Below, in pieces: positions 7,621 through 55,513 of a stretch of 64,000 nt of DNA. Below the pieces are notes generated by a model. The model saw only the letters and a program-made list of their open reading frames with translations. It did not search any database and was not told where the DNA came from. Position 1 is the stretch's first letter. The number at the start of each line of letters is the position of its first letter. A program made the translations under genes and the position numbers. The stretch lies in the IMG/VR virus record IMGVR_UViG_3300020048_000012. The stretch is one strand, 5' to 3'. This stretch comes from a virus.

Positions 7621-7653
7621 GTTTTTCCTATTTAAGTAGTCTCTTTTTATTTA

Positions 7654-22325: not shown

Positions 22326-22955
22326 TTATAAGTAATGACAGAATGTCGTCATGATATATTTAGGGTCGCTGATTGGTTTAAATCCACAATGTAGATATTG
22401 CCAAGTGCTCGGAAATATTAGCATACTTCCTTTCTTGGGTTGACAACTAAATCCCAATTTAGGAAATGCTGCGTCACCACCTTCAGGGATATCATTCAAA
22501 TAATATAATGCAGTGATGAATCGACGGGCCGATGCGTAATCACCGACATCAGTATGTAACCCAAATCCATCTTTGCCATTATTCATTGTCCGATTAATTC
22601 TAAAATGCTCAAATCCGTATTTTTCTGGAATTCTAGTTGGAGCATCCTGTGCATCAATATCAATCATATATTCGCCAATAGCTCGAACAGTGTAGTTTAC
22701 TACATGCGTGTGTAGATGTTTGAATAAAGGAATGTGTTGATTATCTGTGACATTCAATTGATCAAATCTAAAGTGGCCTTCGCCTTGCGCGTGAGTAACA
22801 TGTAATTGAGAATTTTTATCATACAATTGCAATAACTCATTGCATAAAGACGAAGGCAAAACATTTGGTTTATACGTGATATAGAACGCCAAATGCGTCT
22901 TATCAGGACGCCAAGTCATATAATCTTCTGGTGCAAGACGAATAATATCATTCAT
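22326..22955 (-). CDS. 2OG-Fe(II) oxygenase (prolyl-4-hydroxylase-like)
   Basis: FGLHTD (HxD), LYYLNDIPEGG, PKKGSMLIFPS...YLHCG...KY. Confidence 0.88.
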   Translation of the reverse strand: MNDIIRLAPEDYMTWRPDKTHLAFYITYKPNVLPSSLCNELLQLYDKNSQLHVTHAQGEGHFRFDQLNVTDNQHIPLFKHLHTHVVNYTVRAIGEYMIDIDAQDAPTRIPEKYGFEHFRINRTMNNGKDGFGLHTDVGDYASARRFITALYYLNDIPEGGDAAFPKLGFSCQPKKGSMLIFPSTWQYLHCGFKPISDPKYIMTTFCHYL

Positions 22956-23680
22956 AATTTTAAATTCCTAGAATACGCTTCAATTTCGACTAATAAATCA
23001 TCTCTACAAATGTCTACATTTATAATTTTACCACTAATATTGTATTTTTGTAAAATATGTTTTACAACTTGATTTGATTCTTTATTCTTTACGTAGATAG
23101 TATACACTAAGTCTGAATTAGTTACACCCGATGTTGTCATCAATCTTCCGATATTATTAAGCGTTAAATCTATTTGACCAAACAAATCATCTTTATACCA
23201 TGTTTCACTGCCACGAATACTGGCTGTGCCAGATATCAATAAGTTATTGTCGTGTATTGCTGCTCGCGAAAATAATGGAACGCCATACACAGATGGATAA
23301 TTGAATGGATCTATTTGATTTGTATTGCTAAAGAAACGAGCTGGCGTTCGTGCTCGCGTATAGATGAGAGTGTATGTATCATCGAATGATCCTAAAGCAC
23401 ATGCAGTAGGATATTCCGTTACATTAAATTTAGTGAATATCTTTTTGCGAACTACATTGAATTTTGAGTATCGCTGAACGCCATCTTCATAACGAAGAAT
23501 ATCGGGTATAAAGTTTCTTATGTTGATAATGTATGGATATTCAGAATTGGGCGTAAACATTGCATTATACGCCCGTTCAATTTGTGATTCTATATCATAT
23601 CCACTTATTTTGATTTTAGTAGTTTGATAATTTTTCATAATATTAAAATGGTGGTCGGAAGAACACTCGAAGTTCCACAT
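22952..23680 (-). CDS. FkbO/Hyg5 chorismatase-like (YjgF-fold) protein, N-terminally short
   Basis: FSRA...LLISGTASIRG...Q...TL.N...IYVK...VDICRDDLLVEIEA matches the C-terminal domain pattern of the family. Confidence 0.72.
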   Translation of the reverse strand: MWNFECSSDHHFNIMKNYQTTKIKISGYDIESQIERAYNAMFTPNSEYPYIINIRNFIPDILRYEDGVQRYSKFNVVRKKIFTKFNVTEYPTACALGSFDDTYTLIYTRARTPARFFSNTNQIDPFNYPSVYGVPLFSRAAIHDNNLLISGTASIRGSETWYKDDLFGQIDLTLNNIGRLMTTSGVTNSDLVYTIYVKNKESNQVVKHILQKYNISGKIINVDICRDDLLVEIEAYSRNLKL

Positions 23681-23727
23681 TTATCCGTATGAAGGATACT
23701 CTCTGCCTCTTAAGATACCCGACCAAT

Positions 23728-23802
23728 TGGTAAGTCGAATAGGATTCGAACCTATATTAAAGCCTTATAATGGACTCTACTCTACCGTTGAGTTATCGAC
23801 TT
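23728..23802 (-). tRNA. tRNA-Ile(TAT)-like with 8-nt anticodon loop
   Basis: Cloverleaf AAGTCGA/TCGACTT, CCA encoded; loop CATTATAA. Confidence 0.6.
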
Positions 23803-23951
23803 ATTTATTATAGTTTAGCACACTGTTCATACACTTTACCTTCACCTACACAAGGTATGAAGGCCCTCGAGGTAAATTCCGACTTTTCACATTTTCAGGT
23901 AATTACTCCTTACTTAGTGTTTCTCAGTTCGTGCAGTGCGCTAAACTATAA

Positions 23952-24048
23952 CATATTAAACCATACTAACTGCCTAAGCCACAAGAGCTTAACCCTGCCC
24001 GTGATGTGAGCTACCTCATCTATCACGCACCCAGTGTGGTTTAATATG
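23952..24048 (-). ncRNA. inverted-repeat-bounded RNA cassette A
   Basis: catattaaaccatac / gtgtggtttaatatg (14/15) enclosing two hairpins. Confidence 0.45.
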
Positions 24049-24049
24049 C

Positions 24050-24145
24050 GAACTCATTGTAGGCAGGGGTCGAACCTGCACGAGGCGTCTATTTCCTCCG
24101 ACCCTATGAGAGGTCTATGACTACCAATTCCATCACTACGAGTTC
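24050..24145 (-). ncRNA. atypical class-II tRNA-like RNA, CAT anticodon
   Basis: Leu/Ser-type D loop, long variable arm, T loop TTCGACC, extended bulged acceptor, no intact CCA. Confidence 0.5.
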
Positions 24146-24194
24146 CTCAGGTGATCAGTCCCGAGAATGGTGAAGGGTAATTAATCCTTCGTTT

Positions 24195-24319
24195 ACCATA
24201 TTTAAGCGTCTTAATATCTCTCATAGTTGACGCTATAAGTTTTCGCAGGCCGTCAAACCCACCGAAATACTCTACGCGTTTCTTGCATAGAGTACCCCGT
24301 CAAGACACTTAAATATGGT
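24195..24319 (-). ncRNA. inverted-repeat-bounded RNA cassette B
   Basis: 17/18-bp arms accatatttaagcgtctt / aagacacttaaatatggt; internal hairpins. Confidence 0.5.
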
Positions 24320-24390
24320 GATTGAGATAAGAATTGAACTTATGACCTCAACGATGTCAACGTTGCGTTCTACCACTGAACTACTCAACC
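24316..24390 (-). tRNA. tRNA-Val(GAC)
   Basis: Cloverleaf, CAACG-TTGACAT-CGTTG, CCA. Confidence 0.92.
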
Positions 24391-24464
24391 AAGTTATGAT
24401 ACACGTATCACTTCAATACGTATCCATCGACTTCCGTCGTGCTTTCTACAATATCTTAAGCTAG

Positions 24465-24540
24465 TACCATATTAAAACACACACCTTGAACCTATGTTTC
24501 TCATCGTGTCCGCACAGGCGGGATGTGTTTTAATATGGTA
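24465..24540 (-). ncRNA. inverted-repeat-bounded RNA cassette C
   Basis: Perfect 17-bp arms taccatattaaaacaca / tgtgttttaatatggta. Confidence 0.5.
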
Positions 24541-24609
24541 GGGCTGCTCGGTAACGATCCGAGTTTTACGAGTTAAAAGCTCGTTACTTCACCTTAAAGT
24601 TTCAACCCC
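24536..24609 (-). tRNA. tRNA-Lys(TTT)
   Basis: ACGAG-CTTTTAA-CTCGT, CCA. Confidence 0.88.
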
Positions 24610-24614
24610 ATGTA

Positions 24615-24689
24615 TGGTCCCGTGGCTCAGATTCAAACTGAGTTCTCTCGGCTTAAGAGGCCGGACTTCATCGTCAAAGTTTCCTCGGG
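24615..24689 (-). tRNA. tRNA-Lys(CTT)
   Basis: CCGGC-CTCTTAA-GCCGA, CCA. Confidence 0.85.
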
Positions 24690-24837
24690 TGTTACGTATT
24701 GAATTATCTTTTACGTGCACACTTTAGACCATACATGGGATCTAAAGGGCACTATCGTTTAGCAGATGCTTTCATATAGTTTCCTTTTGTTTTAAAAATT
24801 AATTATACTCTAATTACGTATTATTGTACACTAATTT

Positions 24838-24914
24838 TGGAAAGCCATGAGAGATTTGAACTCCCGACCTCTTCGTTCGAAGCGAAGTACTCTAGTCCAC
24901 TGAGTTAATGGCTC
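24838..24914 (-). tRNA. tRNA-Arg(TCG)
   Basis: CTTCG-CTTCGAA-CGAAG, CCA. Confidence 0.92.
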
Positions 24915-24920
24915 ATTGAT

Positions 24921-25124
24921 TTACGCGTAAGAATAAAACGTCTTAGACTTACCTTTAGAATTAGTTACAACGCTTGTGTTAATCGCGTATCCATGTTCAC
25001 GGATATCGCTAATGCGTGCGCGGACAGCATTTGGCGTAGTCTTAAGGCGTGATGCAAGTTGTGCGACGGTTTGTGTTTTGCCTTCAAGCACGAGAGTTTC
25101 AAAGATTTTGCGTTTAATCGACAT
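24921..25124 (-). CDS. small winged-HTH DNA-binding protein
   Basis: TVAQLASRLKTTPNAVRARISDIREHGYAI HTH pattern. Confidence 0.7.
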   Translation of the reverse strand: MSIKRKIFETLVLEGKTQTVAQLASRLKTTPNAVRARISDIREHGYAINTSVVTNSKGKSKTFYSYA

Positions 25125-25146
25125 AATATATCCTCTTATAATAAAA

Positions 25147-25220
25147 TGGAGTACTCATAGGGAATCGAACCCTATTACCCGGTTTTGCAGACCGTTGCCT
25201 ATCCAACTGGCTCTGAGTAC
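25147..25220 (-). tRNA. tRNA-Cys(GCA)
   Basis: ACGGT-CTGCAAA-ACCGG, U73, CCA. Confidence 0.92.
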
Positions 25221-25224
25221 AAAA

Positions 25225-25299
25225 TGGTGCCGCTCCTAGGTTTCGATCCTAGTACCAAGGAATTATGAGTTCCCTGCTCTCCCATTGAGCTAGAGCGGC
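25225..25299 (-). tRNA. tRNA-Met/Ile2(CAT)
   Basis: GGGAA-CTCATAA-TTCCT, CCA; Met versus lysidine-Ile not resolvable by eye. Confidence 0.88.
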
Positions 25300-25307
25300 A
25301 AATAAAA

Positions 25308-25625
25308 TTAACACTTCCACTGGACCAGCCTGGCGTACAGACTGCGGTGGCTCCACCGACAGAAACGTTTATCAGGATTTGAAGAACTTTGATTGCCTCG
25401 AGTCTTTCGACTTGTCAATGGCTAATCGTTGTGCTTTCATGATTTAAACGTTTATCTTTGACACTTAAACTTTGAACTTTAATATTTAAACGTTGAGGTT
25501 CCATATTGGTAGGCATTTCTGCCCGATAGTTCGTTGATTTAAAATATCAATGATTTGTCCATATTTTGATACTGAGGACAATAAGTAAGGCCGTTCTAAT
25601 CTGTTCGGTCCAGCAAAGTGTTAAC
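25308..25625 (-). ncRNA. unknown ~320-nt structured RNA with tandem 7-nt repeats
   Basis: Terminal pairing TTAACACTT-TGCTGGACC / GGTCCAGTG-G-AAGTGTTAA; GNRA hairpins GGCA-GAAA-TGCC and AGTC-GAAA-GACT; heptad tract 25420-25497. Confidence 0.65.
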
Positions 25626-26264
25626 TTAAAAACTGATAGTTGTCTTGGCGTTAACCTCAGACAAAGTGAAATCCAATTCAGTATCGACAAGAGAAATTTC
25701 TTCCTCAAGTGCAGCAATCTTCTCAACAATGTTGACTGGGTCAATCAATGCAGCTTCCTTCATAGCCTTCTGAGGCTTAGCAATTAGGTCATATGAACCT
25801 GCGTCCACCTTGGATTTATCGCTACCATAAATGGTCTTCAAGTTAGAGTCAATGTCTTGCTCCAACTTGGCGTTCAATTGAGACACAAGGCCTTGAGCAC
25901 GAGTTTGTTGAAGACGCATAACATTCAACAGATTACGCTTGCTGTCGATCGAACGCTTCATTTCGATAGCTTCTGCGACAGTCACTTCAATCGAACCAAT
26001 CTTCACTGTCGTGACAGCATTGGACTTAACGATCGCAGCTTTGATTGCGGCACGTTCCTTAAACAGCGAATTCACAGTATCAAAAGAACTCTGGATCTTA
26101 GCCTTAGCCTGATCGACGGACAGTCCTGCCGTATCATTGACCTTCATCTGAGCGTCTTTACCAACACTGACAGTCACAAACATACCGGCACTCGTCGCAC
26201 GAGCAATACGGTCATCGAGACGCTTCAATTCAGCCAAAGCACGAGTTACAGACATTGTGTTCAT
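25626..26264 (-). CDS. coiled-coil hypothetical protein with internal two-fold repeat (212 aa)
   Basis: Start reassigned to MNTMSVTRAL (SD AAGGA 7 nt upstream; longer ORF-track start overlaps a tRNA). Confidence 0.85.
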   Translation of the reverse strand: MNTMSVTRALAELKRLDDRIARATSAGMFVTVSVGKDAQMKVNDTAGLSVDQAKAKIQSSFDTVNSLFKERAAIKAAIVKSNAVTTVKIGSIEVTVAEAIEMKRSIDSKRNLLNVMRLQQTRAQGLVSQLNAKLEQDIDSNLKTIYGSDKSKVDAGSYDLIAKPQKAMKEAALIDPVNIVEKIAALEEEISLVDTELDFTLSEVNAKTTISF

Positions 26265-26296
26265 TTTCATTTCCTTCATAGTTAAACGTTGATTAT

Positions 26297-26375
26297 TGGT
26301 ACCCAAGAGGAGACTCGAACTCCTAACTTTTCTTCGTTCTTAGCGAAGCGCCTTTTCCAATTTGGCAACAAGGGC
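26297..26375 (-). tRNA. tRNA-Leu(AAG), short variable region, two acceptor mismatches
   Basis: CTTCG-CTAAGAA-CGAAG, A73, CCA. Confidence 0.7.
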
Positions 26376-26381
26376 ATTATA

Positions 26382-26456
26382 TGGTACCTCTGCCAGGAAT
26401 TAAACCTGGATCTGAACCTTCGCAGGGTTCTGTGATATTCATTTCACTACAGAGAT
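26382..26456 (-). tRNA. tRNA-Arg(GCG)
   Basis: GAACC-CTGCGAA-GGTTC, CCA; atypical T loop. Confidence 0.82.
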
Positions 26457-26462
26457 AAATTC

Positions 26463-26610
26463 ATTATTGTTAAGAGTTATCATGCAAATTTAGGAGTGAG
26501 GTGCTTCCTCTCCAAAGCCGATGCAGTTATATTAGGATCAGTCGCCGGCCGCTTTGACCCGAATAGATTACACGTCTGTAATCGATACCTTGATAACGCT
26601 TAACAATAAT
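26463..26610 (-). ncRNA. inverted-repeat-bounded RNA cassette D
   Basis: 12+7-bp arms attattgttaag-a-gttatca / tgataac-g-cttaacaataat; internal hairpins. Confidence 0.5.
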
Positions 26611-26822
26611 AAAACACATTAGGAGTCCTATGGAGGGGAGATTATGACCTTCGGAACAACCCTAAGAACTAACGTGTTTTAATAAATCAGAGGCTGGTCT
26701 AAGATGTCACAGAATCGAACTGTAAAACCATCATCTTAAAGAGCGCGGAGTTTCTAGCTACTCATTGCTCCACTCGGCCGAGTTAACCCGTTACATGCGC
26801 TAACACATAACACCTCTAAACT

Positions 26823-26900
26823 TGGTGTGAGCATCCGGATTCGAACCGGAGTATCTGAGTTGGCAACCCAGGACATTAGACCAAACTATGCTATGCCCAC
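26823..26900 (-). tRNA. tRNA-Gly(GCC)
   Basis: CTGGG-TTGCCAA-CTCAG, CCA. Confidence 0.88.
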
Positions 26901-26907
26901 GAAAATA

Positions 26908-26982
26908 TGGTGCTCCCATAAGGACTTGCGCCCTACTCTGAGGCTTACAAAACCCCTGCATCGCTATCTATGCTTTGAGAGC
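26908..26982 (-). tRNA. tRNA-Thr(TGT)
   Basis: GGGGT-TTTGTAA-GCCTC, CCA. Confidence 0.85.
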
Positions 26983-27109
26983 AGATCCAACTGTGAACTT
27001 ATGCTAAGCCGTTGGCGCTTTCGCAGCCAGATCAAGGTTCTGGAAGACCTAAATTGGTGGGATCAGTTTCACAGTCGTCCCGGCGTGTAGGATATACTAC
27101 AACTATATC

Positions 27110-27180
27110 TGGATGCGGGTGAAGGGCACGATCCTTCTGGGCCGAGCTTATGAGACTGGCCGATCACCTGAATACCCGCA
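27110..27180 (-). tRNA. tRNA-Met(CAT)-like with reduced D arm (71 nt)
   Basis: TGCGGGT/ACCCGCA, loop CTCATAA, CCA. Confidence 0.65.
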
Positions 27181-27236
27181 ATATTTTGTTTATTGATTAA
27201 TTATACAACAATTTCTATTTAATAGAAAATCTAATT

Positions 27237-27311
27237 TGGCTCCCCAGGAAAGGTTCGAACTTCCGACCAAGTGATTAACAGTCACCTACTCTACCACTGA
27301 GCTACTAGGGA
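27237..27311 (-). tRNA. tRNA-Asn(GTT)
   Basis: GGTGA-CTGTTAA-TCACT, G73, CCA. Confidence 0.93.
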
Positions 27312-27413
27312 ATAATAAAAATGTAGTGTAACTGGAGTCTTAATTACCAGTATAGCGCAGGCGCACGCGGGAGACTAATCATCTCAGGCAAGTGATAACG
27401 CCTACTACAAAAT

Positions 27414-27499
27414 TGGCTCCACGGGTAGGGATCGAACCTACGATTGTCAAAAGACGACTGGTTAACAGCCAGCTGCATTACCTCTCTGCGCACCGTGGA
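27414..27499 (-). tRNA. tRNA-Asn(GTT) with long variable arm (86 nt)
   Basis: GCTGG-CTGTTAA-CCAGT, extra arm GTC-TTTT-GAC, G73, CCA. Confidence 0.85.
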
Positions 27500-27587
27500 A
27501 TAAAATTCATTGAATCGATTCGGAATTTAACCGCTCTGTTTCCTCTTTCGAGTGAAGGCTCGTTCGACACCTCCCAGATCACTTATT

Positions 27588-27661
27588 TGGTTGGTCTGTT
27601 ACGAATTGAACGTAAATCGGTCGCTTATAAGGCAACTGCTCTCCCATTGAGCTACAGTCCA
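27588..27661 (-). tRNA. tRNA-Ile(TAT)
   Basis: GTTGC-CTTATAA-GCGAC, CCA. Confidence 0.85.
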
Positions 27662-27669
27662 ATAAATTT

Positions 27670-27744
27670 TGGTACCTGGTGTTGGTTACGCTCCAACTAC
27701 AAACGCCTTATCAAGACGCTACCTCGCTATTCGGTCTACCAGGC
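27670..27744 (-). tRNA. tRNA-Ile(GAT)
   Basis: GCGTC-TTGATAA-GGCGT, CCA. Confidence 0.85.
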
Positions 27745-28013
27745 ATGCGGACCCAGATTTATGTCATTAGGCCCATTAGACAGAGGTCTCTTGAGTTTAG
27801 ATAGTCAAGCTATCAAAGCGAGTTGGAGACACTGCTTATACATTTGAGTTCCCGTTTGTCATTGTGGCACGGGTCGCCTTGACGTCCTCAAAAAGGTTCT
27901 CAGAAACTGTGTTAACAGTCTTGTCTCGTAAGAAGGAGATCTTGCGTGTTCGTGTGAAAAAGCCCAATCAGTTGGCACTACTTGCGACTCGACTTCTACG
28001 TCTATCTGAAATT

Positions 28014-28090
28014 TGGAGCGTCCACCCGGATTCGAACCGGGACCATCAGCTTGGAAGGCTGTCATGCTAGCCGTTAAACACCATGAACGC
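28014..28090 (-). tRNA. tRNA-Gly(TCC)
   Basis: ACAGC-CTTCCAA-GCTGA, U73, CCA. Confidence 0.92.
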
Positions 28091-28096
28091 AAAACT

Positions 28097-28222
28097 TGGT
28101 GTGTAGAGTAGGTCTCGAAGCCTACAAATAGTACCATACTCTGAGTCGTTAAACTCATATCAGAATCGAACTGAATGACCAGGCTCATCACCCGGCGCGT
28201 TTACCAATTACGCCATCTACAC
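28097..28222 (-). ncRNA. 126-nt tRNA-like RNA with 53-nt variable region
   Basis: Acceptor GTGTAGA/TCTACAC-A-CCA, Leu-type D arm, loop TGATGAG, second T-loop hairpin in variable region. Confidence 0.65.
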
Positions 28223-28230
28223 ATAAAAAC

Positions 28231-28305
28231 TGGTATCCCGTATCGGTTATGCTCCGATCTCAGTAGGGTGAAGGCCTACTTGCCACACTAGCTGCATCAC
28301 GGGAT
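28231..28305 (-). tRNA. tRNA-Glu(TTC)
   Basis: GTAGG-CCTTCAC-CCTAC, CCA; atypical T loop. Confidence 0.8.
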
Positions 28306-28314
28306 ATAAAAACT

Positions 28315-28389
28315 TGGCGATCTTAGCCGGTAACGATCCGGCTCTTCCTCTTAGACAGAGAGGTGTGCGTCCATGAACACTTTAAGACC
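28315..28389 (-). tRNA. tRNA-Asp(GTC)
   Basis: CCTCT-CTGTCTA-AGAGG, G73, CCA. Confidence 0.9.
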
Positions 28390-28747
28390 TAAAATTCAAG
28401 TCACAACCATTGGGACTCATACCCATTCTATAAAGTGTACCAGTGTGACCAGCGTACACGAAGTTTACTCATGGGCATTTACTTTCCCATTAATTCTTAA
28501 ATTAGGTCGGGAATACACGGCGTTAGAAATAAAGTGGCTCTCGGTTTCGAATCAAAAGCGTATGAATATAACTTCTGTCCCTAGGCAGTCTTTCCGCCGA
28601 CAATGTGTTTCAAACCCCTACTGGACCGACTTACTCTCGCATCGTCAATGATCTGTGGCTTAGTACGTCCAGCATTATTGAAGACCTCCCAGTCTCGGAA
28701 GGCTCGGCACCCATCTACTCATCCTACTAAACATTGTCTTAGTAACT

Positions 28748-28824
28748 TGGCTCCCGTGGCACTCATCGCATAGTGCGTTATCTAACCATTGGCTAAGGTC
28801 CGCGCAGACCCGCTAAACACGGAA
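28748..28824 (-). pseudogene. degenerate tRNA-like sequence
   Basis: Acceptor TTCCGTG/CACGGGA-G-CCA and T-like arm present; D and anticodon arms irregular. Confidence 0.45.
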
Positions 28825-28831
28825 ATAAAAT

Positions 28832-28917
28832 TGGTGGAGTTTGTCACAGGCTTTCACTGTGATTTGCTCAGCTAAGTTATAGCTGCTTTCGTCCTATATG
28901 TTACGTATTCAAACCCC
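28832..28917 (-). ncRNA. D-armless tRNA-like RNA with Ala acceptor identity
   Basis: GGGGTTTG/CAAACTCC-A-CCA (G3:U70), arm CAGCT-ATAACTT-AGCTG, arm TCACAG-TGAAAGC-CTGTGA. Confidence 0.55.
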
Positions 28918-28983
28918 ATAAATTGGTGGACCCCTGTTTCTATGCCTGGGCCCATTGATAGAGTATCTACTATCAGCATGTTT

Positions 28984-29059
28984 TGGTGGAGGTGAGGAGG
29001 ATCGAACTCCTATCTAAGCATTGCAAGTGCTCCGTGTAACCCATTATCACTACACCCCC
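28984..29059 (-). tRNA. tRNA-Ala(TGC)
   Basis: G3:U70, GAGCA-CTTGCAA-TGCTT, CCA. Confidence 0.92.
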
Positions 29060-29065
29060 AAAAAC

Positions 29066-29137
29066 TGGTGGACCTATGGGGAATCGAACCCCAAGCATGG
29101 CATTGCAAGTGCCTTTCCCGTCCCATACGGTAAGCCC
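29066..29137 (-). tRNA. tRNA-Ala(TGC), short D arm
   Basis: G3:U70, AGGCA-CTTGCAA-TGCCA, CCA. Confidence 0.82.
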
Positions 29138-29253
29138 AAAATAAAAGTAACGGTATATGGATTCTTTCCCGTCAGTTGCAGAATTGAACTTTCGAACAAT
29201 CGCCACATTCCAAGTACTCCGTGAAAGGGAGGATGTATCTGCATCTTATAAAC

Positions 29254-29329
29254 TGGTCAGTGATGTTGGTCCCGCCCCAACGGCCTCTCGCTTCCAAAAC
29301 GAGTACTCTACTAGCTGAGCTAATCACTG
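29254..29329 (-). tRNA. tRNA-Pro(TGG)
   Basis: CTCGT-TTTGGAA-GCGAG, C1-G72, CCA. Confidence 0.87.
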
Positions 29330-29434
29330 TAAATTCTTGCTGTGGTAGCTAATACCTCAAGCACAAGCAGTGCATCCCAGTTACGCTGGTTCGTTTATGC
29401 AAGGGCGAGTTTGCTTACGCCTTAGAGTGCTCAT

Positions 29435-29510
29435 TGGTCTCCATACGAGGATTTGAACCTCGGCTTCTTGGTCCCAAACCAAGTGCGCTACCAGGCTACG
29501 CAATACGGAG
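29435..29510 (-). tRNA. tRNA-Pro(TGG)
   Basis: CTTGG-TTTGGGA-CCAAG, CCA. Confidence 0.93.
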
Positions 29511-29516
29511 AAAATC

Positions 29517-29602
29517 TGGTGGATGCGGTAGGATTCGAACCTACAAGTCCGTGAGGAGCCGGATTTACAGTCCGGGGAGCCAACCAATTGCTCAACACAT
29601 CC
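29517..29602 (-). tRNA. tRNA-Tyr(GTA)
   Basis: CCGGA-CTGTAAA-TCCGG, long variable arm, CCA. Confidence 0.92.
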
Positions 29603-29610
29603 AAAATTAA

Positions 29611-29720
29611 TTATACATAAACATACTCGCATCTGCCTTTGGAGCCGCGTGTTCCTCCCCTTGTTTTACCACAGGATCCTGTGGAGGAGTGTGCACATTT
29701 ACACCAATGTTTATGTATAA
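29611..29720 (-). ncRNA. inverted-repeat-bounded RNA cassette I
   Basis: Perfect 14-bp arms ttatacataaacat / atgtttatgtataa. Confidence 0.45.
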
Positions 29721-29831
29721 TCATATTGAAACATATTCCAGGGGGATTCGCACTTGCCTTTTCTTCAGTAAACACTGACCCTGCATCTTAAATCAATAAG
29801 AGGAACCTAACAAAATATGTTTCAATATGAT
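29720..29831 (-). ncRNA. inverted-repeat-bounded RNA cassette J
   Basis: Perfect 18-bp arms atcatattgaaacatatt / aatatgtttcaatatgat. Confidence 0.5.
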
Positions 29832-29914
29832 CCCGAGGGTATCTCGGTAAATTGAGTAGCATTCCAGCGACAGTCCGATTACCAGTCGGATGCCTGCATC
29901 TCTACACAATCATT

Positions 29915-30036
29915 ATCATATTCAAATGCTCCGGGAATACTGAAGGGCATTCTTAGCATCTCTCTTTCCACAGTATAAGACGAATGGAAGATTGCTTAAC
30001 TCACCCCATGTTCAAACCAAAACACTTGAATATGAT
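29915..30036 (-). ncRNA. inverted-repeat-bounded RNA cassette K
   Basis: Perfect 11-bp arms atcatattcaa / ttgaatatgat. Confidence 0.4.
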
Positions 30037-30598
30037 TCCTGAAGCAGTGAACCAGCACACGTGTCCGGCGCTTACTTCAGGATATCATGAAAAATCATCA
30101 AATTTTGAAAGAACAAATCGGGATATCTTACGATACATTACATGCAACAAGGATCGACCAAGCCGCAAACTTTCGTTCACCTCATCAAACATCATTTCTG
30201 TGTTCAACTACCTTAGTGCGCCACTTAGTGGACTACACTCAGAACCCGATTAAAATTTTAAAGAATCTTTCTTGAAGTCCCGATCAACTTCTAAGATTTT
30301 ATTATACCACATTTACTAATTAAAGTAAACAAGTATTTTAAAAATTGTGATACGCTTGGTGTGAAACAAGTCGTCTTTATGTGCGTTCTTTTTTGGCTAT
30401 ACCTGCGAGTTTCACGCAGCGTCAATAAACACATAAATTTCACAATTTTTAAAGAACTTCCAAGCAAACTCGATGGTTTGTTTGTTTATGGATTTATTAT
30501 ACCACGAAGTCTATTTAATGTACACCGTTTTATGCATTATTTTTAGTGCTTCAGGTGACTTCAAGAGACTTACGTTGGTATACTTACACTTGCCCGAT

Positions 30599-30649
30599 GA
30601 ACAATGACGTACGTACACTTGATGCACATAAGTTGTTGATTTATATAGG
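30599..30649. repeat. promoter-upstream module copy 3
   Basis: gaacaatgacgtacgtac...taagttgttgatttatatagg. Confidence 0.88.
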
Positions 30650-30655
30650 CCTAAA

Positions 30656-30730
30656 TGGCATCCCGACTAGGACTCGAACCTAGACATGCAGTTTTGGAGA
30701 CTGCAGTGCTGCCAATTACACTATCGAGAT
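30656..30730 (-). tRNA. tRNA-Trp(CCA)
   Basis: GCAGT-CTCCAAA-ACTGC, G73, CCA. Confidence 0.93.
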
Positions 30731-30743
30731 ATGAAAATACAAA

Positions 30744-30818
30744 GGGGTGACCTATGGGGAATGCTCCCATTCTATCGCTTTCACAGAGCGAGGTGCGAAA
30801 CTTTTACACTAAGGTCAC
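30744..30818 (-). tRNA. tRNA-His(GTG), CCA not encoded
   Basis: TCGCT-CTGTGAA-AGCGA, C73. Confidence 0.85.
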
Positions 30819-30836
30819 ACCTTTGTATTCTAAACT

Positions 30837-30913
30837 TGGTGCGTCTGGAGGGATTTGAACCCCCAACAGTTCGGGTAGAAGCCGAGTACTCTATCCAGTT
30901 GAGTTACAGACGC
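30837..30913 (-). tRNA. tRNA-Arg(TCT)
   Basis: CTCGG-CTTCTAC-CCGAA, CCA. Confidence 0.92.
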
Positions 30914-30920
30914 AAATTCT

Positions 30921-30997
30921 TGGTGCCCGAGGTCAGATTCGAACCGACACGATTTTGATTTTGAATCAAACGCCTCTACCAATTGGGCTACACGGGC
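30921..30997 (-). tRNA. tRNA-Leu(CAA), short variable loop
   Basis: TTTGA-TTCAAAA-TCAAA, CCA. Confidence 0.88.
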
Positions 30998-31006
30998 AAA
31001 TATTCT

Positions 31007-31083
31007 TGGTGCGAATGGCGGGACTCGAACCCGCAGATTATGGGTTTTAAGCCCACTGCCTATACCAATTCGGCTACATTCGC
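31007..31083 (-). tRNA. tRNA-Leu(TAA), short variable loop
   Basis: GTGGG-CTTAAAA-CCCAT, CCA. Confidence 0.9.
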
Positions 31084-31097
31084 ATACTAACTAATTC

Positions 31098-31185
31098 TGG
31101 CGGAGCATGTAGGAATCGAACCTACTCACCACTTACGCAGTGACAGATTAGCAATCTGTTGCCTTAACCGGTCGGCCAATGCTCC
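31098..31185 (-). tRNA. tRNA-Ser(GCT)
   Basis: ACAGA-TTGCTAA-TCTGT, long arm, G73. Confidence 0.93.
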
Positions 31186-31193
31186 TTAAAATT

Positions 31194-31268
31194 TGGTGCT
31201 TCGTGACAGATTCGAACTGCCGACCCTCGCCGTGTAAAAGCGTAGCTCTACCACTGAGCTAACGAAGC
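31194..31268 (-). tRNA. tRNA-Val(TAC)
   Basis: Loop TTTACAC, CCA. Confidence 0.9.
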
Positions 31269-31269
31269 A

Positions 31270-31503
31270 TTAACCATTTCGTCTACACTTATAGACATAT
31301 TCTAATCCATCTGGCAATACGCCATCATTGATACTATCAACACCAGATTTTCCAACTTGATTTGGATCTTCGCATACTGTTGTAACAAATGACATACCCA
31401 ATTTACGCATTCCTTCTGACACTTCTAACGCTCTAAGTAGAGTCGCTGTGTCTACAGCGTGTGACCAGTTTGTGACTGGATCAGTATAATACACTTTAAA
31501 CAT
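31270..31503 (-). CDS. hypothetical protein
   Basis: ORF track 77 aa between tRNAs. Confidence 0.7.
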   Translation of the reverse strand: MFKVYYTDPVTNWSHAVDTATLLRALEVSEGMRKLGMSFVTTVCEDPNQVGKSGVDSINDGVLPDGLEYVYKCRRNG

Positions 31504-31518
31504 AATTCACTTTATTTA

Positions 31519-31595
31519 TGGTGGGGATGGAGAGACTCGAACTCTCAGCTTACGGCTTCTAAGACCGCTGCGTCTACCAATTGCGCCACATCCCC
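31519..31595 (-). tRNA. tRNA-Leu(TAG), short variable loop
   Basis: GCGGT-CTTAGAA-GCCGT, CCA. Confidence 0.9.
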
Positions 31596-31604
31596 GAAAT
31601 ATAT

Positions 31605-31678
31605 TGGTCAGTGATGGAGGTACCGCCCCTCCGCTTCAAGTTTCCAAAACTCGTAGACTACTTTTATCTCAATCACTG
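31605..31678 (-). tRNA. tRNA-Pro(TGG)
   Basis: CGAGT-TTTGGAA-ACTTG, CCA; acceptor identical to copy at 29254. Confidence 0.8.
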
Positions 31679-31685
31679 ATTAATC

Positions 31686-31759
31686 TGGTGCCCCTTCAAG
31701 GAATTGAACCTCATTCTGATGCTTACAAGGCAACTGTAATACCAATATACTAAAAGGGC
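31686..31759 (-). tRNA. tRNA-Thr(TGT)
   Basis: GTTGC-CTTGTAA-GCATC, CCA. Confidence 0.88.
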
Positions 31760-31763
31760 TTCT

Positions 31764-31834
31764 AATATTTGAGCATACTAACTGGATCCATCTCGCACTA
31801 GGTGCATCTCGGGCGATCAATATGCTCAAATATT
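31764..31834 (-). ncRNA. inverted-repeat-bounded RNA cassette M
   Basis: Perfect 14-bp arms aatatttgagcata / tatgctcaaatatt. Confidence 0.45.
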
Positions 31835-31874
31835 GGAGCTGCTACGGAGAATCGAACTCCGCTTGTCGGGATGA
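31834..31874 (-). pseudogene. 3' half of split tRNA-Glu
   Basis: TCAT-CCCGA-CAAG-CGGAG-TTCGATT-CTCCG-TAGCAGC-T-CCA; no 5' half adjacent. Confidence 0.85.
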
Positions 31875-31876
31875 TC

Positions 31877-31951
31877 TGGAGTCGCATACGGGAATCGAAC
31901 CCGTCTCTACAGCATGAAAGGCTGTTGATCTAACCGATAATCTAATGCGAC
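31877..31951 (-). tRNA. tRNA-Glu(TTC), intact, overlapping endonuclease stop
   Basis: ACAGC-CTTTCAT-GCTGT, GTCGCAT/ATGCGAC, CCA. Confidence 0.92.
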
Positions 31952-32616
31952 ATTGTTCTACCTTGTTTAAATCCTTCTGGTATTATATCACTATCTTTTA
32001 TTCTGGTGTTCACTTTACCATCAGTTATCCAAACTTGCTTATATTTTCTTTTATATTCTTTAACTTTTTTACCAAGTAATGAATCAGAAATTTTCTTCTT
32101 CATCTCATCTGTCATTGTGTTCTTAGATTTTTGATGTCTGCCGGCACAAATTCTACTACAAAATTTTGTTTCGGTTTTTATCTTTCTCTCTGTTTCAAAC
32201 TCAATTTTACAACAATCACAGAGATGTTTATATTTTGGTTTATATCCATCGTATAGTTCAAAGTATTTCTTTGTTCCATATTTTCGAGTAACATATTCAA
32301 ATGCGTATTGTAAATCATCTTTACGTAACACATTTACAATATAACCAAAAGATTCAGCAACCTTTGTTTTCTTATCAACAAATTCTTGTTTCTCGTATCC
32401 CTTTGTTTCTATTATCGTTTTTCCATCAGATAATAGAAAATCAGGATAATAAGTTATTCCATCTTTTTCTAACTTTCCAGGAAATCTTTCGAACTCAATG
32501 TGGTGATCTAAACTATAGATCACCCAACACAATTCATAAGTGCTACCGCAATATATTCCATTATAGTATCCACTTTTTGATCTTCCAGAACCTTCTCTAT
32601 ATCCACCTATTGTCAT
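31942..32616 (-). CDS. PD-(D/E)XK-type free-standing homing endonuclease with Zn-finger and NUMOD-like tail
   Basis: YYPDFLL...IIETKG catalytic motif; CDCC/CSRIC; VWITDG; late promoter 32635-32642. Confidence 0.8.
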   Translation of the reverse strand: MTIGGYREGSGRSKSGYYNGIYCGSTYELCWVIYSLDHHIEFERFPGKLEKDGITYYPDFLLSDGKTIIETKGYEKQEFVDKKTKVAESFGYIVNVLRKDDLQYAFEYVTRKYGTKKYFELYDGYKPKYKHLCDCCKIEFETERKIKTETKFCSRICAGRHQKSKNTMTDEMKKKISDSLLGKKVKEYKRKYKQVWITDGKVNTRIKDSDIIPEGFKQGRTMSH

Positions 32617-32634
32617 ATAACACCTCCATTTTAT

Positions 32635-32642
32635 TATTTATA
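32635..32642 (-). promoter_or_regulatory. late promoter TATAAATA for endonuclease gene
   Basis: Exact consensus followed by SD GGAGG. Confidence 0.72.
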
Positions 32643-32651
32643 TAAAATGAG

Positions 32652-32677
32652 TGTCCTAACCGATAGACGATAGCAGC
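32652..32677 (-). pseudogene. 5' half of split tRNA-Glu
   Basis: GCTGCTA-TC-GTCT-ATCGGTTA-GGAC-A; GCTGCTA pairs perfectly with TAGCAGC at 31838-31844. Confidence 0.85.
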
Positions 32678-32762
32678 AAAAATTTGCGAGCATCTCACGA
32701 TGTGTCGACTTCGTATCTTATGCACCGTATTCGACCGATGACTCAGAAAAATACGCTATAAC

Positions 32763-33044
32763 TCAGCGACGTTGTACGTATACGTCGATCGTGCGTGCAT
32801 CTTCAAGCTTGAAGCTTTTGACACACTGATTCTTGTATTTCGCGTAAGCAGGATTTCCTTTGCCTAAACGAGCTTTTAAACAAACTCTAAACAATACCGG
32901 AGTTTGCTTGTGCCACTTTGCGGTCAAGACTGCACTTTTGTTGACAGAACGAATTGACTTGCGAACCGCTTCAATTTTGTCCATGTCAGACGTACTCATC
33001 GGGTCAGCGGTGAATACGTAAGCGTCTGTTCTTGCCTTTTTCAT
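32763..33044 (-). CDS. early hypothetical protein
   Basis: ORF track; directly downstream of early promoter 33070. Confidence 0.7.
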   Translation of the reverse strand: MKKARTDAYVFTADPMSTSDMDKIEAVRKSIRSVNKSAVLTAKWHKQTPVLFRVCLKARLGKGNPAYAKYKNQCVKSFKLEDARTIDVYVQRR

Positions 33045-33088
33045 AATCTATCCTTGTTTCGATAGATCAATTATACCACAAAGTCTAA

Positions 33089-33250
33089 TTATTGTACACC
33101 GTTTTCTTCTTTTTTCTTGCCGTATGTCTTAACGATGCTTTCGCCGCTAATCATCATATTCTTAAAATGATTGCGCTGTTCATCGCTTGTCAAAGTCGCC
33201 ATCAAGCGCTTTGTCTGTTTCGAAAGTTTAAAATGTCCATTTGTCTTCAT
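33089..33250 (-). CDS. small hypothetical protein (start MKTNGHF)
   Basis: ORF track frame; SD GGAG before ATG at 33250. Confidence 0.55.
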   Translation of the reverse strand: MKTNGHFKLSKQTKRLMATLTSDEQRNHFKNMMISGESIVKTYGKKKEENGVQ

Positions 33251-33276
33251 AATATCTCCATTAAAAAATATATACA

Positions 33277-33355
33277 TGGTGGGAGGTCTAGGAATCGAAC
33301 CTAGTTCTTCTGCTCTTCAGGCAGACGCTGGAATCACCAGACTAGCTCACCTCCC
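33277..33355 (-). tRNA. tRNA-Phe(GAA)
   Basis: TCTGC-CTGAAGA-GCAGA, CCA. Confidence 0.92.
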
Positions 33356-33363
33356 GAAATTCA

Positions 33364-33579
33364 CTAAATCTTCATCAATCCATCAAAATACGCTTTCCAC
33401 GATTTAGCATATTGGTCTACACTAAACTGCAGTGTCGTATACATCTGCGTATAAAACCATCCGTAATGTTTTACAGCATCTTCAAGCGTTTCACTTTTCA
33501 ATGCGCGTTTGAGATGATATGACGCTGGAATTTTATACATTCTTTCTTTCCTCTGCAATCTTCTGGATAACATGTTCAA
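33364..33579 (-). CDS. hypothetical protein
   Basis: ORF track. Confidence 0.5.
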   Translation of the reverse strand: MNMLSRRLQRKERMYKIPASYHLKRALKSETLEDAVKHYGWFYTQMYTTLQFSVDQYAKSWKAYFDGLMKI

Positions 33580-34081
33580 GAAGAATTGGTTTAAAATCGG
33601 TATGCTCTACTGAAACACAGTGGTATCTAGTATCTATACGAGATACGCCATGCTTATCGATGAGCATCACTCGATCACTATGAAGATGTCCATGTACATT
33701 TGCAGTAAATTTTCTGAAACTAGCTTCATGGATTGGAATGTGAGTCAAAAGCAAATTGCTCAACGAATAAGATCCATGAACATCTTCAAAAAATGGAGCG
33801 TATTCGTCCATTCTAAGATTATCATGATTGCCCTTAATGAGAACTTTCTTACCATTGAGTCTATTCATAATACCAATAGACCTACGATTCATGACAACAT
33901 CGCCAAGATGATAAACTTTATCTCCTGGTTTGACTGTTTCATTCCAAGCCTTTACCAATGCTTCATCCATTTCATCTGGATTAGTCCATGGACGCAATTT
34001 AGTGACACCATCAGATTGTGTAAATCTGCAAACGCCCATATGACCAAAATGTGTATCCGATACGATGTAAACTGCAGGCAT
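33533..34081 (-). CDS. calcineurin-like metallophosphoesterase
   Basis: SDTHFGH, YHLGD, IKGNHD, LTHIP, HGHLH. Confidence 0.9.
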   Translation of the reverse strand: MPAVYIVSDTHFGHMGVCRFTQSDGVTKLRPWTNPDEMDEALVKAWNETVKPGDKVYHLGDVVMNRRSIGIMNRLNGKKVLIKGNHDNLRMDEYAPFFEDVHGSYSLSNLLLTHIPIHEASFRKFTANVHGHLHSDRVMLIDKHGVSRIDTRYHCVSVEHTDFKPILLEHVIQKIAEERKNV

Positions 34082-34209
34082 TTTAAAATTTCCTTATAAT
34101 TCGTTTTATTTAATAAAATTATTATACCACGAAGTCTATTTAATGTACACCGTTTTGTGCAGTATTATTTCAAAGTGATAGTGTGTATATATCACTCAAG
34201 TGTTATAAG

Positions 34210-34301
34210 TGGCGGAGAGCAGAGGAGTCGAACCCCATCCCATTTCTGAGAACCTGGTTTTCAAGGCCAGTCGCAGGACCATCCCCGCTGCATTACTCTC
34301 C
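34210..34301 (-). tRNA. tRNA-Ser(TGA)
   Basis: CTGGC-CTTGAAA-ACCAG, long arm, G73. Confidence 0.9.
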
Positions 34302-34308
34302 GAATTTT

Positions 34309-34386
34309 TGGCAGGGGTAATTGGATTCGAACCAATGATGACGATTTCAAAGACCGTTGCCTTAGACCAAACTAGGCGATACCCCA
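34309..34386 (-). tRNA. tRNA-Gln(TTG)
   Basis: ACGGT-CTTTGAA-ATCGT, G73, CCA. Confidence 0.92.
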
Positions 34387-34592
34387 ACAATAGTAAAACA
34401 TTCATTAAACATTTTACTATAGCCCCTGAGAAGCAGTGGACCGGCACAAAGGCCGGCGCTTACTTCTCAGGTGACCATTAATCAGACTTTCGTCTGATTT
34501 TTAGAATTCACTAAATTTTTAAAGAGCGTTGGAAGTTTCCTTCCTTAGAGTGTATTATAACACCCTGACGATTTATTGTACACCGTTAAACA

Positions 34593-34622
34593 CAAAAGCC
34601 CCAATCTTTCGAGAGGGGCTTT
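34593..34622 (-). terminator. intrinsic terminator
   Basis: AAAGCCCC-TCTCGAAAGATT-GGGGCTTTTG on minus strand. Confidence 0.7.
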
Positions 34623-34765
34623 GGCGTGATCCTACTGATCTTACACTTAGCCCCTAATTATCCCAACCCTCGATCGAATGCTGAGGACGCGCATTAAATT
34701 TACTGGTCGTATAGACCGGCAAAGTTGTGCAGTTGGATAAGAGTGTATGTATTAACATTGTATTT

Positions 34766-34773
34766 TATTTATA
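34766..34773 (-). promoter_or_regulatory. late promoter TATAAATA
   Basis: Exact consensus overlapping stop of ORF 34769..34978. Confidence 0.55.
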
Positions 34774-34978
34774 CGTCGAGAACGGCTCCTGCGCCACTCC
34801 AGACAACTTTATTTTCGTCTTCGTACAATCTAAATTCATAGTCTGCAATGTCAAATCCAAACGCTTCACATGTCGCTTCAACTGCATTGACGCCGGGTAC
34901 GATGTCTTTGTACCAACCGACTTCAACACCTTTTTTGAAAACTTTTACTTTTGTCTTTTCCATTACTTGATCTTTCAT
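34769..34978 (-). CDS. hypothetical protein
   Basis: ORF track. Confidence 0.6.
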   Translation of the reverse strand: MKDQVMEKTKVKVFKKGVEVGWYKDIVPGVNAVEATCEAFGFDIADYEFRLYEDENKVVWSGAGAVLDV

Positions 34979-34987
34979 ATCGCGGTG

Positions 34988-34995
34988 TATAAATA
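34988..34995 (+). promoter_or_regulatory. late promoter TATAAATA for antisense endonuclease gene
   Basis: Exact consensus about 60 nt upstream of ORF 35055. Confidence 0.7.
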
Positions 34996-35054
34996 TAGTG
35001 TCTATCGCGATATCTCACTATCCATAGACTCTAACACTAACAAGGAGTGCCAGC

Positions 35055-38795: not shown

Positions 38796-39197
38796 TTATT
38801 TCTCCTGTGTGAACAAACGGGCGATATCATAATCAAAGCGATCATGCATTCGCTGCAGGACTTCTTCAGGAACGCTATGAACATTCCCAAAAGAGTTTTG
38901 ACAAACAATGACAGTTGGAACAATGTCGAAGTTTTTAGCGATATCGAAATATGGTTTCAATTCTTTTTTAGTCGTAAATGTATTTGATACAACGACATTC
39001 ATACCCATCGATAGATATTTTTTGGTTTCTTCGCGACACCATGTATGAGCTTCGTTTAATTTACTAAGATTGAAGTTGTAATCTTGTCCCCAAAACATAT
39101 CAGTTTCAAGATGAACTGTGATTTGAGGTTTAGCAAGACTTTTTGCCAGAGTTGATTTGCCTGAACCTGGAAGGCCACGAATAATAATTAATTTCAT
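38796..39197 (-). CDS. P-loop kinase (AAA_33 / Pnk-kinase-like)
   Basis: IIRGLPGSGKST, VVSNTF, HSVPEEVLQRM. Confidence 0.85.
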   Translation of the reverse strand: MKLIIIRGLPGSGKSTLAKSLAKPQITVHLETDMFWGQDYNFNLSKLNEAHTWCREETKKYLSMGMNVVVSNTFTTKKELKPYFDIAKNFDIVPTVIVCQNSFGNVHSVPEEVLQRMHDRFDYDIARLFTQEK

Positions 39198-39242
39198 ATG
39201 TTTATTATACCATAAGTGCGAATTAATGTACACCTAAAACGC

Positions 39243-55462: not shown

Positions 55463-55513
55463 GAACAATGACGTACGTCACTATTGGTGCTCTAAGTTGT
55501 TGATTTATATAGG
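55463..55513. repeat. promoter-upstream module copy 7
   Basis: gaacaatgacgtacgtcactattggtgctctaagttgttgatttatatagg. Confidence 0.9.

Follow-up and report, generated by a model that had tools for sequence, protein, structure and literature searches.

A family of long-stemmed RNA units opening at tRNA CCA ends in the tRNA arrays of uncultured T4-type phages

The 64,000-nucleotide stretch of viral DNA analyzed here, IMG/VR record IMGVR_UViG_3300020048_000012 (hereafter the window), carries 33 tRNA genes called by ARAGORN between 23649 and 34386, every one on the minus strand, and set among them lies a series of units that are each closed by a long stem between inverted arms. Comparative sequence evidence supports the view that these units belong to one family, whose shared closing stem acts as RNA on the tRNA strand. 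Because the units also lie on the minus strand, "upstream" in the RNA sense means rightward, toward higher window coordinates. The topoisomerase large subunit of the window is at most 45% identical to the versions of Aeromonas and Vibrio T4-type phages, further open reading frames (ORFs) resemble T4-type replication and RNA-repair functions, and a megablast search of the region against 50,697 GenBank phage records found no near relative, returning only single-tRNA matches; taken together, these observations identify the source as a distant, uncultured T4-like phage.

We scanned the window for stems of at least 14 bp with no more than one mismatch and a loop of 20-170 nt. This recovered 11 units in 23600-32000 versus one in the remaining 55.6 kb, and 60 dinucleotide shuffles of 23600-32000 gave a mean of 0.13 units and a maximum of 2. 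The original prediction, made from the letters of this DNA, had listed eight main units and two weaker ones. All eight main units reappeared within 1-3 nt of the coordinates proposed for them, their stems measuring 14-20 bp with one mismatch at most; among the weaker candidates, 26610-26681 held up (13 bp, one G-U), whereas 27322-27409 did not, reaching about 6 bp in the fold and being absent from the stem scan. Four further elements had been overlooked, at 23808-23951 (18 bp), 24607-24739 (13 bp) and 30337-30453 (16 bp), together with the stem around tRNA-His at 30736-30829. Units tile without spacers at 23951|23952, 26610 and 29720/29721, and the minus-strand fold was the more stable one in 12 of 15 folded units.

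Family membership was scored with a covariance model, R1, based on an alignment of 105 external units (A2, described below). Six window units, A, B, C, F2, F3 and H, matched it with E-values of 7e-5 to 1e-11, and in all six the minus-strand score exceeded the plus-strand score. Over the whole 64 kb, nothing beyond these six reached E < 0.1, unit E being weak at 0.13. The arm consensus anticipated for five units is therefore real and extends to six, at 28.6-55.4 bits by this external model; the score of unit C is partly high by construction, since the training row from locus L149 is identical to it. Units D, F1 and G and the units at 23808-23951 and 24607-24739 display the family architecture without the family sequence. 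The individual features are as follows:

23808-23951, minus strand: unnamed unit, an 18-bp stem module abutting unit A; non-member, R1 only 10 bits
23952-24048, minus strand: unit A, a diverged member with arm CAUAUUAAACCACACU; 16-bp stem with 1 mismatch; R1 28.7 bits; abuts 23808-23951
24195-24319, minus strand: unit B, a member with an 18-21 bp stem starting from the ACCA of tRNA-Val(GAC); 85-nt interior; R1 36.7 bits
24316-24390, minus strand: tRNA-Val(GAC), whose ACCA opens the unit B stem
24465-24540, minus strand: unit C, the canonical member; 17-18 bp stem, 42-nt interior; R1 55.4 bits (plus strand 45.9)
24536-24609, minus strand: tRNA-Lys(UUU), whose discriminator and CCA open the unit C stem
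26463-26610, minus strand: unit D, a 20-bp stem module with other arms; non-member, no R1 match
26607-26684, minus strand: unit E, a decayed member with its outer 8 bp replaced; R1 15.6 bits, E 0.13
29610-29721, minus strand: unit F1, a 15-bp stem module with other arms; non-member
29720-29831, minus strand: unit F2, a member in which AUCA replaces ACCA; perfect 18-bp stem; R1 46.9 bits; abuts 29610-29721
29915-30036, minus strand: unit F3, a member with arm AUCAUAUUCAAGUGUUUU; 20-bp stem with G-U; R1 30.7 bits (plus strand 17.0)
30337-30453, minus strand: unit G, a 16-bp AU-rich stem module; non-member
30736-30829, minus strand: tRNA-His within an 18-bp leader/trailer stem, its acceptor prolonged by a 10-bp leader/trailer duplex
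31761-31837, minus strand: unit H, a member whose stem opens in the CCA of the tRNA-Glu 3' fragment at 31836-31876; R1 28.6 bits (plus strand 19.5)

Relatives of the region were gathered using the 226-aa ORF at 25626-26306 as an anchor, which yielded the viral contigs L001 (close; 95% amino-acid identity in the anchor protein) and L002 (more distant; 67%), plus 80 metagenome loci. The anchor itself, on the minus strand in the middle of the tRNA array, matches a PHROGs "tail fiber protein" and no Pfam family; at least 371 metagenome stretches contain relatives of it, and many of these stretches have no tRNAs close by. The window and L001 have units B, C, F1, F2, F3 and G and the tRNA-His stem in common, and L002 and a further locus, L012, harbor the same kind of unit with related arms; no interior similarity was detected among the window units or, beyond L001, between them and those of relatives. 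L001 differs from the window at only 0-10 positions per unit, too few to reveal covariation inside individual units. Unit C is identical to its L001 counterpart at 76 of 76 positions within a block of 85% overall identity, and unit F2 is likewise identical there. In unit F1, L001 shows an A to G change that retains a G-U pair on the tRNA strand, and the leader/trailer pairing of tRNA-His is preserved through two both-side changes. Equivalent 19-bp leader/trailer stems enclose tRNA-Asn and tRNA-Pro of L002 (L002 7810-7907 and 8058-8167). Across 24 stems of the window and its relatives, we counted 11 G-U, 4 A-C and 5 other mismatches. The inner arm and interior of the decayed unit E are homologous to units of L128, L204 and L205 (alignment A4).

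To define the extent of the family, we searched with a pattern consisting of the outer 11 nt of each arm, separated by a gap of 40-70 nt and then of 71-101 nt. Viral contigs returned at least 125 matching stretches with the shorter gap and at least 125 with the longer one; with about 20 specified bases, we estimate that only a handful of chance matches would be expected, a figure not computed on the collection itself. The family occurs in more than 200 uncultured phage contigs. Its stem spans 18-19 bp (5' ACCAUAUUGAARCACAUU ... AGUGUGYUUCAAUAUGGU 3') around an interior of 25-90 nt of unconstrained sequence, and arm similarity reaches well past the search pattern, the consensus of the viral matches being ACCAUAUUGAAGCACAUU ... 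AGUGUGUUUCAAUAUGGU. An uninterrupted stem of at least 15 bp was found in 89 of 108 distinct longer units. Large carrier contigs hold one to eight units each, clustered in tracts of 1-10 kb, and a T4-type major capsid protein is encoded in all five of those tested.

The same pattern, run against 185,579 prokaryote genomes (596 Gb), matched 84 stretches, mostly with stems of 8-12 bp, and the sole canonical copy in this set sits on a 1.5-kb contig of a metagenome-assembled genome (MAG). Three hairpins from one Rhodospirillales MAG (L229, L266 and L285) share the outer 11 nt, have other inner arms (…UUUAAUUCAC / GUGAAUUAAA…) and may represent an unrelated repeat family. A blastn search of the canonical unit against the 50,697 GenBank phage records, with E up to 10, found no unit. 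Rfam 15 left the units unmatched both in 22500-35500 of the window at E up to 1 and in the carrier loci; what did appear were tRNA-clan matches and weak, sub-threshold plastid-family matches, namely Plastid-ycf2 opposite tRNA genes in the window and, among those in the carrier loci, one Plastid-psbl-rps4. Searches of open-access full text turned up no description of the family, and the arm sequence gave only unrelated primer-type matches there. The family seems to be undescribed.

The pairing of the closing stem bears the marks of selection at the RNA level. Alignment A2 comprises 105 units, leaving aside 3 of 108 oriented units whose arms end at the pattern and 3 of 111 units that could not be oriented; 10 of its 19 stem pairs are fixed by the search pattern and are hence uninformative. 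Across the 19 pairs, 98.3% of cells are paired, and both sides have changed in 8 pairs, over 121 cells. None of 500 shuffles matched the A2 stem on any measure, and slid partners paired in only 30-48%. The covariation across related phages that the original prediction had named as a check is thus present. A score of G-U minus A-C mismatches, computed for 98 units oriented by their neighboring tRNAs, was positive in 74, negative in 2 and zero in 22, and pair 17 is U-G in 81 of the 105 units. The combination of covariation and strong G-U/A-C asymmetry shows a stem that is maintained as RNA on the tRNA strand, as a DNA palindrome would show no such asymmetry. Arm positions free of the pattern are 70-83% identical between phages, compared with 52-68% for the adjoining tRNA 3' halves (last 30 nt, same isoacceptor) and 26-30% for interiors and 3' flanks, so that the arms are better conserved than the tRNAs they adjoin.

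The position of the stem relative to the tRNAs is equally specific. In the window, the stem opens at the discriminator and CCA of the upstream tRNA in units B (tRNA-Val), C (tRNA-Lys) and H (the tRNA-Glu 3' fragment), and the earlier claim that the arms of B and C include the ACCA of these tRNAs is confirmed. Units A, F2 and F3 come after other modules, and ACCA is replaced there by CAU or AUCA. The unit C stem opens with UACCA, the 3' end of tRNA-Lys(UUU), and the joint fold of the two places the cloverleaf flush against a 17-bp stem with zero unpaired bases between them, in keeping with the proposal that the stem would sequester the CCA end of the upstream tRNA in the precursor. CCA is paired in every family member, and it is encoded by 31 of the 33 window tRNAs and by 785 of 814 tRNAs across the arrays of carrier contigs.

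Among the 98 oriented units, 52 open in the ACCA of a tRNA called by ARAGORN, the types being Glu-UUC (16), Lys-UUU (14), Lys-CUU (3), Leu (10) and others (9). For another 56 units, some of them oriented by wobble pairs only, a helix of at least 5 bp ends directly before ACCA in 68% versus 36% of shifted controls. When the first base was left free (n=183), pair 1 was A-U in 146 units, G-U in 22 and unpaired in 15, with a constant 3'-terminal U. On the other side, the next tRNA starts at -5 to -3 relative to the 3' end of the unit in 8 of 98 cases and at +4 to +14 in 19 of 98; at offset -3 (7 units), the stem ends in three bases that also open the next tRNA. The stem measures 16-21 bp in the tRNA-transcript strand, about two helical turns, and whole units measure 60-130 nt, with only 1 of 200 falling below 60 nt in a search without a length filter; a few apparent units longer than 200 nt probably join the arms of two neighbors. 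No units or half-sites were found outside tRNA/small-RNA arrays.

The interiors behave differently from the arms. Those of 111 short units form 84 clusters and those of 89 long units form 62, their identity between phages is at chance (26-28%), and their GC content is 0.50 versus 0.31 in the arms. The original prediction described them as unrelated but structured: the former is borne out, and the latter holds weakly, as interior-only folds differ from shuffles by a mean z of -0.54 in the sense and -0.45 in the antisense direction (194 units; 7% below -2). Some interior classes nevertheless recur in different phages and contexts, with hairpins kept by compensatory changes, and a T-arm stands beside the 3' arm in 16 of 89 long units. 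The best tRNA-model score among these T-arm-bearing units is a 21-bit tRNA-Sec-like match (E 0.67), and a tRNA-like reading of all units was rejected, no window unit matching the tRNA model RF00005. The suggestion of a library of structured small RNAs goes too far, since most interiors fold no better than shuffles; the exceptions are the few classes with compensatory changes or a T-arm.

The interior of unit B forms three hairpins, with UUUGACGG and UAGCGUCAACUA motifs, and the complementary CGUCAA/UUGACG pair reported for it earlier is indeed there. T4 RNA C and RNA D (species 1 and 2, annotated at NC_000866 70908-71171) offered a comparison: rnaC (NC_000866 70908-71046) has UUUGACGG and UAGCGUCAACUA, arranged as they are in unit B, with a 12-nt exact match that 11 of 2000 shuffles reach, although the resemblance comprises only two short motifs and involves unit B alone in the window. 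The match of unit B to rnaD is at chance (1334 of 2000 shuffles reach it), and the other window units show no similarity to either RNA. Units in two other phage contigs, L130 (3127-3231) and L150, carry, like unit B, UUUGACGG and (U)AGCGUCAACU(A). As loop motifs, UUUGACGG and AGCGUCAACU are mutually complementary and might form a kissing pair; they occur together in unit B, T4 rnaC, L130 and L150.

Unit content is mosaic even between close relatives. Units A, D, E and H are missing from L001, which in turn carries a private unit at 7621-7769; where unit D lies in the window, the tRNA-Gly and tRNA-Arg of L001 are 6 nt apart. In contigs of related strains from four DNA runs (X2-X5), the onset of similarity coincides exactly with a unit boundary, 24194 for three runs and 23808 for one; related contigs also carry a replacement for the tRNA at 24840-24914, similarity jumps from 30341 to 30447 in two runs with the unit G arms kept, and one contig in run X5 skips from 31759 to 31887 and so is without unit H. 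L086 and L116 have identical flanks around different interiors. This pattern fits recombination at the repeated arms, and it also fits assembler breaks at repeats.

We propose, tentatively and at slightly under even chances, that the units are cis-acting processing and insulating stems of a long tRNA/small-RNA transcript, cut by a double-strand-specific nuclease. In such a transcript, the stem opens exactly at the discriminator and CCA of the upstream tRNA or tRNA-like helix, with about one-quarter of the stems ending no more than 14 nt from the next tRNA; it would clamp the CCA end in the precursor and insulate neighboring tRNAs from one another. It may serve as the recognition site of an endoribonuclease specific for double strands, either host RNase III or a sequence-reading factor. 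We infer that a cut in the stem, together with RNase P at the next tRNA, would separate the tRNAs, release the hairpin and free the CCA end for exonuclease trimming. The interior would then be mostly unconstrained spacer, with some units carrying a small RNA module that resembles T4 RNA C or bears a T-arm.

Several observations weigh against this proposal. A generic RNase III site needs no conserved sequence, which means that the stem is read by another factor or that something homogenizes it; such a site leaves the sequence conservation, the constant pair-17 U-G and the minimum unit size unexplained. None of five large carrier contigs (two of them 99-100% complete) encodes an RNase III domain, and no candidate phage enzyme was found. 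A tetraloop would suffice for a pure processing stem, and yet only 1 in 200 units is shorter than 60 nt, which implies a size constraint on the interior that we can explain only by conjecture. About half of the units abut no recognizable tRNA, and the proposal does not account for Glu and Lys making up 33 of the 52 abutted tRNAs versus 12% of all tRNAs in these loci. A bolder and, to our mind, doubtful extension would have the stem act as a sequence "address" for a dedicated factor of a large uncultured T4-type clade, which would cut a variable set of small RNAs and tRNAs out of a single transcript; by analogy, it would be a phage counterpart of repeat-guided RNA processing, as in CRISPR repeats and pri-miRNA stems, and its cargo would be the T4 RNA C-like and T-arm-bearing interiors.

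Among the alternatives, it is possible, if rather unlikely, that the units are stable trans-acting small RNAs in which the stem is a protein-binding handle or scaffold and the interior the working part, as a decoy, sponge, guide or tRNA mimic. T4 RNA C and RNA D, which are excised from the tRNA transcript, would be their counterparts, and the notion draws on the length held at 60-130 nt, the recurring interior classes with their compensatory hairpin changes, the T-arms beside 3' arms, the two complementary loop motifs shared by unit B, L130, L150 and T4 rnaC, and the higher GC content of the interiors. It has to contend with interiors that scatter into many clusters, are no more alike between phages than chance and fold barely better than shuffles on their own; there is also no conserved unpaired nucleotide outside the stem, and the roles of the T4 RNAs are themselves described as unknown in PMC3014915. 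Less plausible are elements acting as DNA, whether MITE-like (miniature inverted-repeat transposable element) or homing cassettes bounded by 18-bp terminal inverted repeats and directed at tRNA 3' ends, or arms serving as recombination points for module shuffling between co-infecting phages. The mosaicism described above, with unit content varying among close relatives, similarity beginning at unit boundaries and interiors exchanged between constant flanks, would suit them, as would the nuclease gene with weak HNH-family profile matches that adjoins unit H, although assemblers also break contigs at repeated arms. Terminal inverted repeats are present; however, the flanks of the 98 oriented units show no target-site duplication, dispersed copies or half-sites outside the arrays were not found, copies within one genome have unrelated interiors, and we found no associated transposase. 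Orientation is almost fixed relative to transcription, and mismatches are of the G-U kind on the tRNA strand in 74 units against 2, a bias that a DNA element would not preserve. The MITE-like reading in the original prediction is not supported: the units are confined to arrays and, for the 111 short ones, spread over 84 interior clusters.

Of comparably low probability, and a shade lower still, is a maturation switch, in which the clamp would hide the CCA and sometimes the first bases of the next tRNA, so that particular tRNAs, chiefly Glu-UUC, Lys-UUU and Leu, are held inactive or shielded until the clamp is opened or removed by a phage factor. Pairing of the CCA in all members, the seven units at offset -3 that cover the first three bases of the next tRNA, and the Glu and Lys bias among abutted tRNAs agree with this, as do the genes in the window for RNA ligase, kinase and 3'-5' exoribonuclease functions and for a HAD "Swiss army knife" RNA-repair domain. 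No regulator is known, though; many units come after non-tRNA helices, the tRNA-type bias may be inherited gene order, and the search pattern itself demanded an A discriminator. A switch also overlaps with the processing stem that we favor and does not exclude it. Self-cleaving ribozymes that process tRNA 3' ends, like the theta (hepatitis delta virus-like, or HDV-like) ribozymes, seem highly improbable. They occupy the same place, directly behind phage tRNAs, according to PMC10879173, but no Rfam 15 ribozyme family matched 22500-35500 of the window or the carrier loci at E up to 1, and conservation here is confined to a plain helix, without a conserved unpaired core. That source gives 4.5% as the share of theta-adjacent tRNAs that encode a CCA tail, far from the 785 of 814 in the present arrays.

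Other features of the array and its surroundings complete the picture of the window. An idea that the 3' arm is a promoter, prompted by its resemblance to a T4 MotA box, was dropped, as UGUUUCA predominates on the sense strand and some units are followed by separate promoters of the sigma-70 type. A repeat of about 55 nt, possibly a promoter-type module, occurs at 30478-30540, 33042-33118 and 34105-34169 and in at least five further places in L001. Beyond the tRNAs called by ARAGORN, Rfam reports an extra one at 26911-26982 (minus strand, 37 bits) and a sub-threshold tRNA-Sec-like match at 34214-34301 (minus strand, 34.9 versus 47 bits), and an 88-nt "tRNA" at 24055-24142 (minus strand) was called with a two-base anticodon. 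Between tRNA-Gly and unit E, a 138-nt module at 26685-26822 (minus strand) has a T-arm-like hairpin (ACAGUUCGAUUCUGU) and no called tRNA; it too is absent from L001, given the 6 nt between tRNA-Gly and tRNA-Arg there. Next to unit H, the 224-aa ORF at 31942-32616, the source of the weak HNH-endonuclease profile matches, lies near a decayed tRNA-Pro-like copy (31603-31684, minus strand) and the leftover tRNA-Glu 3' fragment (31836-31876, minus strand). Genes for RNA repair and trimming, all on the minus strand, are located at 13535-14596, 38796-39233, 46955-47452 and 7654-8250; this set consists of the RNA ligase, a P-loop kinase, the HAD domain protein and a Rv2179c-like 3'-5' exoribonuclease. 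At 55492-57506 (minus strand), a 487-aa protein combines an RF-1 (peptidyl-tRNA hydrolase-type) domain with a NadR-like adenylyltransferase/kinase, and a nicotinamide mononucleotide (NMN) transporter gene follows it.

Little is understood of how phages mature the 3' ends of their tRNAs, and fifty years have brought no function for the small RNAs in the T4 tRNA cluster. With its fixed sequence clamped on the CCA end, and with no counterpart in Rfam or in cultured phages, the hairpin provides a testable handle on both questions. Covariance model R1 can be used to annotate such arrays, and the units also supply a compact, naturally occurring design for synthetic arrays in which tRNAs must be separated.

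Known systems that come close include the RNase III processing stems, exemplified by the leader/trailer helices of 16S and 23S rRNA and the sites in phage T7 early RNA; T4 species 1 RNA is cleaved by RNase III as well. Both they and the units present a duplex of about two turns, formed by sequences flanking a module in a polycistronic stable-RNA precursor and kept by compensatory change. Unlike them, the units have a stem whose sequence is conserved across diverged phages and which opens exactly at the discriminator and CCA; this stem encloses a dispensable-looking interior rather than a mature RNA, and its cleavage is a prediction. Conserved inverted ends around variable content are also a feature of MITEs and palindromic repeats and of the promoter/stem-loop modules shuffled among T4-type phages. 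The units resemble these further in their presence or absence between relatives, and differ in lacking a target duplication, in their fixed transcriptional orientation and G-U asymmetry, and in being limited to tRNA arrays.

The theta ribozymes, minimal HDV-like elements with a catalytic core found in gut phages, provide a parallel of another kind: PMC10879173 describes them, too, as conserved RNA elements sited at phage tRNA 3' ends, with a proposed role in 3'-trailer processing and hundreds of examples in uncultured phages. The units, by contrast, have no conserved core, include an encoded CCA and are carried by T4-type phages, and the DNA runs recorded as containing parts of the window are labeled as aquatic, freshwater, lake, wastewater, hydrocarbon or landfill metagenomes. 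T4 RNA C and RNA D differ in having no long closing stem, and R1 matches nothing in the T4 tRNA region. What they have in common with the units is their setting, as non-tRNA RNAs inside a T4-type tRNA cluster, and, for unit B, the UUUGACGG and UAGCGUCAACUA motifs of rnaC.

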